A program made the translations under genes and the position numbers. 64,000 nt of DNA, taken from sequence record OK254198.1; one strand, 5' to 3'. This DNA comes from Escherichia phage PSD2001. This document shows positions 32,250 to 34,847 of the stretch, piece by piece. The notes beneath the pieces were generated by a model. It searched no databases, was not told where the DNA came from, and saw only the letters and a program-made list of their open reading frames with translations. The stretch's first letter is position 1, and every line of letters begins with the position of its first letter.

Positions 32250-32417
32250 TTATACTGTAGGTTTATCGTCTTTGTTCTTACGCTTTTTTGATGGGATTTG
32301 TTCAGGGCCTTTATTGACAACTGCCCCGGAAGTGGTACCTGTTGCGATATTAGTTGGGTTTCCACCTGCATCGCCAGCAACCATATCTTCGTTGATAAAA
32401 TCTTTGAATGTTTTCAT
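32250..32417 (-). CDS. Small hypothetical protein (55 aa)
   Basis: MKTFKDFINEDMVAGDAGGNPTNIATGTTSGAVVNKGPEQIPSKKRKNKDDKPTV; G-rich Shine-Dalgarno; below the track cut-off. Confidence 0.3.
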   Translation of the reverse strand: MKTFKDFINEDMVAGDAGGNPTNIATGTTSGAVVNKGPEQIPSKKRKNKDDKPTV

Positions 32418-32436
32418 AACACCCCCTTTCCGCTAT

Positions 32437-32628
32437 TTATACAACGAAGATAGCTTTATCACCATTTGCATCAGTCACTTCATAAGTGTCTTCATGATAC
32501 AACGGAATAATCCAGGTAACACCATCATCAGCGATAACATGGATTGCTTCTTGGTCTTGCGACACGATTTCATATTCTTCAAAAATCTGGAAGACCGAAA
32601 TCTTAGAGCCCGTACACATTGCACTCAT
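32437..32628 (-). CDS. Hypothetical protein (63 aa)
   Basis: Minus-strand ORF in the 61-41 interval. Confidence 0.35.
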   Translation of the reverse strand: MSAMCTGSKISVFQIFEEYEIVSQDQEAIHVIADDGVTWIIPLYHEDTYEVTDANGDKAIFVV

Positions 32629-32824
32629 ATTGTTCCCTTCTTTTAATTAGTTGACGATGCGCCTTTTTAAGTTTACGAATCTGGCGTTTAGTTGGTCGAG
32701 CAACGTAAGCTTGAGTAGTTACTCGTCCAAAAACTCCATACTTGGGAGACGGCGTATCAATAAAGACTTCCCATTGGCAAGAGTAACTATATATTGCTTT
32801 AGAGAATTGGGTCAAAACAAACAT
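32603..32824 (-). CDS. Hypothetical protein (73 aa)
   Basis: Minus-strand ORF, basic. Confidence 0.4.
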   Translation of the reverse strand: MFVLTQFSKAIYSYSCQWEVFIDTPSPKYGVFGRVTTQAYVARPTKRQIRKLKKAHRQLIKRREQYECNVYGL

Positions 32825-32825
32825 A

Positions 32826-33179
32826 TTAACCTCGCTTCATGAAGGCATTAAAAATCTGGTCGTCGACAGACTGTTCTTGAGCTTTGACCCAAGCCCCTTC
32901 CAAAATGTCATTTGCTTCAGTAGATAGCATGACCCCAATTTCAGGGTTTCCGGTTATCCATGCTGCACAATCACGTACATTCTTTTTATCAAATGGATAG
33001 CCGCGAGTATCTTCATAAGGTCCATTCATTACCATAAATGAGCGAGCCTTTATGATAACACCATCTTTAACGATAATATAACCAATCGCCTGATTAAACC
33101 GAGGCTCACGAAATTCATAATGAGCATTACCATCATTATTGCTCGTCAGTTCAAAATTCAGAAAATTATAATAACTCAT
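32826..33179 (-). CDS. Hypothetical protein (117 aa) ending SVDDQIFNAFMKRG
   Basis: C-terminal 13 aa and about 40 nt of 3' sequence are near-identical to the 3' end of the adjacent gene. Confidence 0.5.
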   Translation of the reverse strand: MSYYNFLNFELTSNNDGNAHYEFREPRFNQAIGYIIVKDGVIIKARSFMVMNGPYEDTRGYPFDKKNVRDCAAWITGNPEIGVMLSTEANDILEGAWVKAQEQSVDDQIFNAFMKRG

Positions 33180-33180
33180 A

Positions 33181-33621
33181 TTAATCTCGCTTCATGAAAG
33201 CATTAAAAATCTGGTCGTCAACTGAATAAACAGGGGTTTCCAGAAGTTTCAAAAGACTGTTTTTGATGTACTTACCAGGGATACCCATATTAACAATACT
33301 GTCATTCAATTCATTATCTGGGATGATGTCTTTAAATTCAAACCCGTCAAACTCAACCTTGTCAGGAATACCGTCAGCGAAAAAATAAACCAATTGGTGC
33401 ATTGTATTGCGCGAAAATAATTTAGACTTGACCGCAATAAGTTCTTGCCAATGGTTTAATTCTTTGTTAAGAAGTTTATGAGCAAACGTAATTCTATTGT
33501 CACTATCGACAAGAAAATAACCCAGGTATTGAATGGGTTCGTCGCTCCAAAACATCCTGTATGCTTGTGCATTTTGATTTTTACAACGAAGTTTTTTGAT
33601 AACTAAATTTCTGTTAATCAT
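33181..33621 (-). CDS. Hypothetical protein (146 aa) ending SVDDQIFNAFMKRD
   Basis: Start at the ATG at 33621 (AGGTGA Shine-Dalgarno), 1 nt after the upstream stop; shares its C-terminal tail with the previous gene. Confidence 0.5.
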   Translation of the reverse strand: MINRNLVIKKLRCKNQNAQAYRMFWSDEPIQYLGYFLVDSDNRITFAHKLLNKELNHWQELIAVKSKLFSRNTMHQLVYFFADGIPDKVEFDGFEFKDIIPDNELNDSIVNMGIPGKYIKNSLLKLLETPVYSVDDQIFNAFMKRD

Positions 33622-33622
33622 T

Positions 33623-33916
33623 TTATTCACCTGTAACCCATTGAACAATCTTGCTGTTGTCAAATGAAGCATCGCAATACAGAACATAGTTATACTGCAT
33701 AACGTCACCAGAAGCCAGTTGGTCAGATACTTCTTTAACCATATCAGGGTGGTCACGTTTAGTAATGTTCATGATATCAGCATAAATCTGATGTTCAACA
33801 TCGGTCTGGTCAGCAGTCATGGACCACTCACAAAGGTCTTTATCAAGTCCAGCAGTAACTGGAGCTGTACCACATGATGCTACGGTAAGAATTGCTGCGA
33901 TTAATAACTTTTTCAT
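33623..33916 (-). CDS. Secreted/lipoprotein-like small protein (97 aa), possibly Spackle (Sp)-like
   Basis: Signal peptide MKKLLIAAILTVASCG; four Cys; size and position in the 61-41 interval match T4 sp. Unverified. Confidence 0.4.
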   Translation of the reverse strand: MKKLLIAAILTVASCGTAPVTAGLDKDLCEWSMTADQTDVEHQIYADIMNITKRDHPDMVKEVSDQLASGDVMQYNYVLYCDASFDNSKIVQWVTGE

Positions 33917-33974
33917 TTCAATCTCCTCAGTAGTTGATAGGGATAATATACTGCATTATCCCTTTGATGTACAC

Positions 33975-34316
33975 TTATTTTTCACCTTCAACTGAAAAAC
34001 CGGTCAATTTGTAATATTCGGCACGTGCAATATGAAGAGCTGCTTCAATATCAGTAAGGCAGATTTCTTCATTTAACAGTTGCGCTTCAACGGTCAAAAT
34101 CAGATTACGCAATGCGGTACCCTTACGCATGTCTACTTTATGAATTAGCTTGTCATCAACAAAAGCTTCAACCAGCGCATTATAGTTATCAGCAGTCTTC
34201 TGGACATACCAGTGAATACCTGCGGGGTGGAACATGCTAGAACGTTCAAAAGATGGTACACCAACAGCACTCACTTTGATTGTTACTTTTACGCGGTCTT
34301 CTGGATTAAAAGCCAT
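33975..34316 (-). CDS. Hypothetical protein (113 aa), paralog of the following small gene
   Basis: YNALVEAFVDDKLIHKVDMRKG parallels NNALVKAFVNDNKVFECDYR in ORF 34317-34529. Confidence 0.45.
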   Translation of the reverse strand: MAFNPEDRVKVTIKVSAVGVPSFERSSMFHPAGIHWYVQKTADNYNALVEAFVDDKLIHKVDMRKGTALRNLILTVEAQLLNEEICLTDIEAALHIARAEYYKLTGFSVEGEK

Positions 34317-34529
34317 TTAGATTTCCTCAGATAAGTGGATACGATAATCACATTCAAAAACTTTATTGTCATTAACAAAGGCTTTCACCAGCGCATTATT
34401 CACTTCTGCATACTGCACTGTAACCCATTCAATCATATTTTGGTCACTAACATCCAGCGCAGTTTCTTTGGTAAACATATTACCATTTTCAAACCAACCA
34501 ATAAACACTACGTTCTCTAATTTATACAT
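34317..34529 (-). CDS. Small protein (70 aa), possible Dmd-like antitoxin
   Basis: Size and position adjacent to the 61.x/sp block fit T4 dmd; assignment is positional and low confidence. Confidence 0.3.
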   Translation of the reverse strand: MYKLENVVFIGWFENGNMFTKETALDVSDQNMIEWVTVQYAEVNNALVKAFVNDNKVFECDYRIHLSEEI

Positions 34530-34847
34530 TTAGATTTCCTCACAAAACGCCCAGTCTGCATGATAAACTGTTGCGCCTTTAGTATCATTTAAACAAACCA
34601 CGTCAACAGGTGCAATCACACGATAAAGACGGGGTTCTCCTCCATACGAGCGAGCTGCTCTTCCTGCATAGATACGCGCCAAACCAATATCTTCAGTAAA
34701 AAACACACGCCCTAAATTTTTCTTACGCCCAACTTCTGACAGAACACCAGTTACATCAGGAGGACAAAGCATATTTTGGATTCCAGCATTAGAGCTTGAC
34801 CCATGATAATAAACTTTGTATTCTGCCTTGCAATCAATGGTTTTCAT
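34530..34847 (-). CDS. Hypothetical protein (105 aa)
   Basis: Minus-strand ORF preceded by the shared leader. Confidence 0.45.
   Translation of the reverse strand: MKTIDCKAEYKVYYHGSSSNAGIQNMLCPPDVTGVLSEVGRKKNLGRVFFTEDIGLARIYAGRAARSYGGEPRLYRVIAPVDVVCLNDTKGATVYHADWAFCEEI

Follow-up and report, generated by a model that had tools for sequence, protein, structure and literature searches.

Between genes 41 and 61, phage T4 carries an anti-TA island in which dmd acts against RnlA, tifA (61.4) against ToxN and adfA (61.2) against DarT (Srikant et al. 2022, PMC9391042). The gene content of this island shifts via recombination at short repeats, and recombination in T4 works at homologies of only 6–10 bp (PMC9391042). 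Few phage inhibitors of a DNA ADP-ribosylating toxin are known, and AdfA is one of them. AdfA(R164H) binds DarT1, and His164 variants let RB69 grow on DarTG1 cells (PMC11257639). Deletion of adfA in T4 itself gave no DarTG1 phenotype (PMC11257639), so any function given to the family is provisional. The protein (T4 gp61.2; Pfam PF23813; PHROG 3781) has 208–216 aa and looks like two tandem domains followed by a single tail.

The internal-protein locus of T4 is hypervariable. The T4 internal proteins, whose bodies differ, carry one short capsid targeting sequence (CTS, MKTYQEFIAE) at a terminus, and foreign proteins fused to the CTS are also packaged. PeSL cassettes, which Arbiol, Comeau and Krisch reportedly described in 2010, are said to be intergenic units of an early promoter and a stem-loop in the hyperplastic regions of T4-type genomes. 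Their short repeats at gene boundaries were reportedly proposed to aid modular shuffling.

The locus described here lies in the same region as the T4 island. The window, which is the whole stretch of 64,000 nt that was analysed, has there dmd, a weakly Dmd-like gene, sp, two genes that we call B and A, and a gene of the TifA family, and its gene content likewise shifts via recombination at short repeats. A and B have the same C-terminal peptide, whereas the published description of the T4 island (PMC9391042) mentions no peptide common to different island genes. The peptide is that of AdfA, and A and B are also alike to AdfA in the slot immediately after sp and ahead of 61.1 and the primase gene, in the stop/start junction and probably in fold, with a hairpin motif that is common to A, B and AdfA and occurs twice in the last. 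They differ in architecture: AdfA appears to have two tandem domains and has one tail, whereas A and B each have one domain and a tail of their own. Against the Pfam AdfA profile, A scores 20.6 bits (gathering threshold 27) through its tail only, and B has no match at E ≤ 1. A and B are best filed as single-domain AdfA-like paralogues with the AdfA C-terminal peptide, outside Pfam AdfA proper by score and by architecture.

The likeness to the CTS lies in the logic alone. As an N-terminal leader the CTS directs proteins to the prohead and is removed by cleavage once the prohead has assembled, whereas the tail of A and B is C-terminal; no CTS-like leader is present in A (N-terminus MSYYNF) or B (MINRNL). 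The A/B repeat also falls outside the PeSL definition, being coding and without a stem-loop, and neither copy has a promoter-like or terminator-like site inside it.

Gene order and the variable slot

The window is from a T4-like phage of the genus Gaprivervirus. VR20 is its nearest relative (96.9% identity over 32400–34400), and SP18 and VR7 are also close. Along the minus strand the order is the gp41 helicase gene, three small ORFs, dmd, a 113-aa ORF, sp, B, A, a DUF7279/TifA-family gene, a 63-aa ORF, 61.1 and the gp61 primase gene. The upstream edge of the variable slot is sp (spackle; 33623–33916, minus; Pfam T4_Spackle, E 2.5e-43). A promoter-like site lies just upstream of sp, at 33973–33945, and early promoters are annotated at the matching place in fPS-90 and fPS-65.

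Gene B (33181–33621, minus) encodes a single-domain AdfA-like protein of 146 aa, counted from an ATG, that ends SVDDQIFNAFMKRD and is of the JS98 ORF030c type (PHROG 8539; E 7e-91 against phrog_8539). The ATG taken is the annotated start in VR20, SP18 and VR7 as well; the mechanical ORF list runs B to a GTG at 33756. Gene A (32826–33179, minus) encodes a second such single-domain protein, of 117 aa, that ends SVDDQIFNAFMKRG and belongs to PHROG 4122 (E 1.6e-52 against phrog_4122). The downstream edge of the slot is the gene at 32603–32824 (minus), which matches Pfam DUF7279 (T4 gp61.4/TifA family; E 3.3e-20); the T4-type 61.4 genes belong to DUF7279 too. This gene and the 63-aa ORF downstream of it (32437–32628) overlap by 26 nt (32603–32628), and they are annotated likewise in VR20, SP18 and VR7.

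A 49-nt repeat at the 3′ ends of A and B

The first-pass annotation, made from the letters of the DNA, had pointed to near-identical 3′ ends and a common tail in these two genes. Alignment, shuffled sequences and BLASTP all bear this out. The annotation placed the similarity in about 40 nt before each stop. The repeat is real and its length was understated: it covers 49 nt and takes in the stop codon as well as the ATG that follows. Its two copies, 355 nt apart, are identical at 45 of 49 positions (4 mismatches) and read TC[T/A] GT[C/T] GAC GAC CAG ATT TTT AAT GC[C/T] TTC ATG AAG CGA G[G/A]T TAA T ATG, which encodes SVDDQIFNAFMKR(G/D), a stop codon and the ATG of the next gene. Copy 1 (32822–32870, minus) consists of the last 14 codons of A, TAA, T and the ATG of the TifA-like gene, whose start thus falls within the repeat. 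Copy 2 (33177–33225, minus) has the same composition, with the last 14 codons of B and the ATG of A. Similarity between the two 3′ ends is confined to the repeat and breaks off abruptly at both of its edges. In BLASTP of A against B the 13-residue tail alone aligns, with 13/13 identities. No third copy of the tail turned up in a six-frame fuzzy peptide search of the window.

That the repeat arose by chance, through faulty assembly or by a very recent local duplication in this genome alone has nothing in its favour except its small size, and we give this practically no credence. With up to 3 mismatches allowed, the 34-nt core pattern occurs at 2 places in the window and had 0 matches in 100 shuffles. 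The arrangement with two tails is found in the independently sequenced VR20, VR7, VR25 and SP18, and the tail is present in T4, RB69-type and JS98-type phages. These observations refute such an origin.

The tail is the C-terminus of AdfA

The annotation had missed the link to a named family, AdfA, whose C-terminus the tail is, as the Pfam match and the end of T4 gp61.2 demonstrate. Residues 102–117 of A fall on positions 196–211 of the 211 positions of the AdfA profile, and T4 gp61.2 itself ends SIDDQIFNAFMNRG. The AdfA-type C-terminal motif S-[IV]-DDQIFNAFM-N-R-G is present in A, B and T4 gp61.2, and the consensus of the tail over the family is S-[IV]-D-D-Q-I-F-N-A-F-M-[KN]-R-[GD]. PHROG cross-matches join the A, B and AdfA families via their C-termini only. 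A primer for adfA of RB69 encodes QIFNAFMNRG in differing codons (PMC11257639). A literature search found the peptide string in no paper of the collection searched.

The tail is present in homologues of related phages, contrary to what the annotation had named as grounds for refutation. Over viral, metagenomic and bacterial collections it occurs at a protein C-terminus only in the sp–61.1 slot of T4-like phages, on at least 5 or 6 body types. A tail-region HMM run against 1.84 billion representative proteins gave 8 true clusters, all of the A, B or AdfA type. The matches listed in a search with a 42-residue tail alignment included 7 short fragments. In IMG/VR, 20 contigs match the degenerate DNA pattern for D-D-x-I-F-x-A-[FW]-M, all of them T4-like, and in the metagenome DNA scan true C-terminal matches likewise occurred in T4-like contigs only. 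Among bacteria and archaea (one genome per species, 185,579 species) there were 7 matches, all of them internal chance matches. A survey independent of the tail, of 77 loci anchored on primase, placed the tail-bearing genes between sp and 61.1 without exception; many other T4-like loci in the survey have no tail-bearing gene.

The carriers are diverse in length. Besides AdfA itself, they include the A proteins of 116–119 aa together with A-like (A2) proteins of about 40% identity in Tequatrovirus, an intermediate of 125 aa (P0051), and the B proteins of about 146 aa together with a relative of 34% identity (P0049). The A family is found in 332 GenBank phage records, 299 of which hold the divergent Tequatrovirus type, and the B family in 85. 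Three further carriers are a Cys-rich protein of 111 aa (F111) that ends GSDD[DE]IFNAWMKR, a protein of 143 aa (L067, 3033–3464) in which SVDDQIFEAFMERD is followed by 14 more residues, and a protein of 138 aa (L038, 2527–2943) that ends ...SVDDQIFNFWIGHV, its tail being broken after the Asn.

Disrupted carriers were also encountered. Three 33-aa ORFs (P0011–P0013) were considered as remnants of the tail and rejected, as they are gene-caller fragments of disrupted A-like genes. In two Tequatrovirus loci (L138 and L140, about 2230–2602) the A-like gene carries a frameshift close to its 5′ end, and a 33-aa tail ORF is called; in a third (L139) the A-like gene is interrupted by a scaffold gap. 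In the Yersinia phage fPS-65 (LR215724; L142, 4036–4509) AdfA is N-terminally truncated to 157 aa with the tail kept. It starts at the residue that matches T4 position 52, and the roughly 150 nt up to sp hold no annotated gene.

Stop/start junction and cassette exchange

After every A, A2, B and AdfA tail there is a stop codon, one base and an ATG (TAATATG, TGATATG or TAAAATG); F111 has an overlapping ATGA in place of the one-base junction. The Arg-Gly codons at the end of the tail, CGA GGT or AGA GGT, give GAGG 5 nt before the next ATG. In the window, CGAGGT of copy 1 gives GAGG at this distance from the ATG of the TifA-like gene (CGAGGTTAATATG), and copy 2 has a weaker GAGA before A. The sequence itself shows that the last two codons, the stop and the T serve the following gene as Shine-Dalgarno site and stop/start junction (CGA GGT TAA T ATG). 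Translation coupling accounts for the last 10 nt or so of the repeat, not for the remainder. RNA structure was tried as the cause of the repeat and rejected, the junctions folding no better than shuffled sequences (z −0.23 and +0.99).

The repeat also bears on the gain and loss of genes. VR26 (locus L027) is without gene A, and both breakpoints lie within the repeat: its sequence is that of the 3′ end of B as far as the repeat, beyond which it passes into the beginning of the TifA-like gene exactly as the window does after A. Loci of Tequatrovirus have AdfA only, as in T4, AdfA together with A-like (A2), or A-like only. Since T4 recombines at homologies of 6–10 bp, a direct repeat of 49 bp is a strong substrate for recombination.

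On these grounds the tail could be mainly a DNA-level element, a portable block of homology and a coupling junction kept by cassette swaps, whose peptide has no function of its own. The repeat flanks A exactly, VR26 has lost A with breakpoints inside it, several combinations of cassettes occupy one slot, the repeat holds Shine-Dalgarno, stop and next start codon, and T4 recombines efficiently at short homologies (PMC9391042). The 111-, 138- and 143-aa carriers, whose bodies have no detectable similarity to the others, fit as well. Even so, this reading is quite improbable in our judgement. Coupling needs only the last 8–12 nt or so, the folding of the junction RNA is that of shuffled sequences, and a block of homology would stay alike as DNA, whereas here the synonymous sites vary freely and the core residues do not. 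The variants DDDIFNAWMKR and DDQIFEAFMERD have the same residue pattern in other codons. In the B family, moreover, the 15 residues preceding the tail are also among the most conserved part of the protein.

Selection on the peptide and sharing of codons

The unique tail sequences of the A, A2, B and AdfA genes differ synonymously at the two Asp codons and at the Gln, Ile, Asn, Ala, second Phe and Arg codons, and the core DDQIFNAFM is unchanged. This set came from DNA scans whose pattern fixes most of the core, and homologues found via their bodies were therefore checked as well. Exactly DDQIFNAFM is present in 40 of these 43 homologues; in the other three, D is replaced by E (twice) or M by L (once). 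Identity of the bodies is 13–19% between families and falls to 30–41% within them, whereas 11–14 of 14 tail residues are identical and the core stays 9/9 even where the bodies of one family have diverged to 30–41%. In the B family the last 30 residues, which include the 15 before the tail, are the best conserved. Because the core amino acids are fixed while synonymous sites drift between phages, purifying selection on the peptide is indicated; by this comparison of codons and residues, selection is shown to act on the tail peptide.

Within a lineage the codons are more alike. At identical residues A and B use the same codon in 10 of 13 cases where 6.3 are expected from the codon usage of the window (P = 0.027), a modest test on 13 codons. 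Both VR-group genes have Lys-Arg in their tails, and the AdfA/A-like pairs of Tequatrovirus have Asn-Arg or Asn-Lys. The B tail has the codons CAA/TTT in VR26 and VR7, and CAG/TTC, as in A, in VR20 and the window. Few as the sites are, they suggest gene conversion between the tails of A and B that keeps their codons alike within a lineage.

The first-pass annotation had offered two meanings for the tail. The recombination junction that moves gene bodies is upheld as a secondary consequence by VR26, the Tequatrovirus combinations and the co-variation of codons, and does not stand as the primary role; the evidence supports a gene-moving junction that is a by-product of a peptide kept for another reason. 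The shared C-terminal interaction or targeting peptide is the best-fitting reading, given the core kept 9/9 and the synonymous drift, and the partner in it is hypothetical.

Relationship of the bodies

The bodies of A and B had been described as otherwise unrelated, which is probably wrong in the light of secondary-structure order, Foldseek and tail-free profile comparisons. The AF2 models of A and B have the same order of elements, namely four beta strands, a helix, a strand and a C-terminal helix. Both were built on shallow alignments, with a pLDDT of 78 in 1 of 5 models of A (about 45 in the others) and a mean pLDDT of 64 for B. When model A was run against BFVD with Foldseek, it matched the model of a B-family protein of VR25 (E 3.9e-4, TMq 0.58) and a 212-aa protein. 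The 157-aa truncated AdfA of fPS-65 matched model A (E 2.9e-4, TMq 0.54) and model B (E 7e-6, TMq 0.45). These are 3Di+AA scores that include the identical tail, and the models are of modest confidence.

Profile comparisons with the tail removed agree with the models. The alignments used for hhalign included P0049, P0050 and P0051; earlier ones, which were very shallow, were uninformative. A and B align collinearly over nearly their full length (P 8e-4). A matches the N-terminal half of AdfA at P 2.3e-4 and the C-terminal half at 2.7e-3, B matches the C-terminal half at 7.7e-3 and the N-terminal half at 0.035, and the two halves match each other at 9.6e-3. All six real scores lie above all of the 7 reversed-template controls (P 0.085–0.83), with hhalign probabilities of only 1–45%. 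A hairpin motif, G-[YF]-[IF]-[ILM]-V-[KDQ]-[DNS]-[NDG]-x-I, is found in A, B and P0049 and twice in AdfA. Thus A, B and both halves of AdfA are probably distantly homologous. The bodies of the 111-, 138- and 143-aa carriers showed no detectable similarity to A, B or AdfA, so that the carriers of the tail need not all be homologous.

In another explanation, the tail is the most conserved secondary-structure element of one ancient domain and serves self-packing or homo-oligomerisation, and so folding or stability, with no external partner or modular role. A, B and AdfA do appear to have a common fold; the tail is predicted to be helical and, in A, continuous with the preceding helix, and it is the best-conserved segment of every family. 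Against this, the tail is a C-terminal helix of low confidence in the models of both A and B (pLDDT below 50, where the bodies reach 80–90), and the linker that precedes it varies in length and sequence. The two-domain AdfA has just one tail, and the tail is also found on bodies that have no detectable similarity. We hold this explanation to be rather unlikely.

Proposed origin and role of A and B

The explanation that we prefer is one of a peptide selected for its own sake, and in its entirety it seems to us reasonably probable: A and B would be AdfA relatives with a selected tail, a coupling junction, occasional gene conversion, cassette exchange as a by-product and a presumed role as inhibitors. 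They would be tandem, fast-diverging, single-domain members of an early-transcribed series sp – B – A – tifA-like – 61.1 – primase. In each, a variable beta-meander/alpha body would be the specificity module, and the near-invariant C-terminal peptide would follow it. On this view three layers account for the near-identity of the copies. Purifying selection on the tail peptide and the use of its end codons as Shine-Dalgarno site and stop/start junction for the gene that follows are shown above; the third layer, occasional gene conversion between the copies, would keep codons alike within a lineage. As a by-product, the direct repeat of about 49 bp on either side of A allows entire cassettes to be lost or gained by homologous recombination.

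At the C-terminus, the tail would form a flexible helix with one function common to all members. It might bind one shared partner, bind the target toxins at a conserved site, or associate with itself. Its hydrophobic core, I-F-x-A-F-M, would be framed by acidic residues on one side and basic ones on the other. A description of the tail as an amphipathic helix was rejected, its helical hydrophobic moment being no higher than that of shuffled sequences. Which target is bound would depend on the body, much as it depends on residue 164 in AdfA. By analogy with AdfA, we infer that A and B inhibit toxins or defence proteins of the host.

A more far-reaching proposal makes the tail the constant effector or adaptor of a modular anti-defence family. 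Its recognition domains (A, B, the two halves of AdfA and the 111-, 138- and 143-aa bodies) would evolve fast, be interchangeable and each catch a different host toxin or defence protein. The invariant tail would bring all of them to one hub, be it a factor of host or phage or a pocket conserved among the targets. The repeat would shuffle the cassettes, and A and B might pair via their tails into a two-domain, AdfA-like inhibitor. In this full form the proposal strikes us as unlikely.

The last 14 residues of AdfA emerge here as the one invariant element of a set of otherwise hyper-divergent proteins, all encoded in a single slot of the T-even anti-TA island. The tail offers a concrete, testable way into a motif of this anti-defence family. 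A, B, the A-like proteins (in about 300 records of Tequatrovirus) and another three small families become candidate anti-defence genes. The locus is also a natural example of a coding repeat that is kept by selection at the protein level and doubles as a substrate for the precise gain and loss of genes.

Other features of the island

Upstream of sp, the 113-aa ORF (33975–34316, minus) adjoins dmd (34317–34529). It has a sub-threshold match to Pfam Dmd (E 0.0017, residues 34–64), and it may form with dmd a second pair of tandem paralogues in the island. The ORF has no counterpart in SP18 and some relatives, which accounts for the 82% query coverage of these phages. The gene at 34530–34847 (minus) encodes a 105-aa protein (MKTIDCK...YHGSSSNAG...FFTEDIGLA..IYAGRAA...YHADWAF) that has no Pfam match and is conserved in distant T4-like genera; relatives are found at L039 2695–3015, L055 2149–2472 and L057 1363–1677. 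At the other end of the island, gene 61.1 (32250–32417, minus) encodes a protein with the N-terminus MKTFKDFINEDMVAGD in the window and MKTYKEFIKEDMVAGD in T4-type loci, which resembles the CTS. In other T4-like genera 61.1 is a protein of 123–177 aa, and the matching part lies close to its C-terminus.
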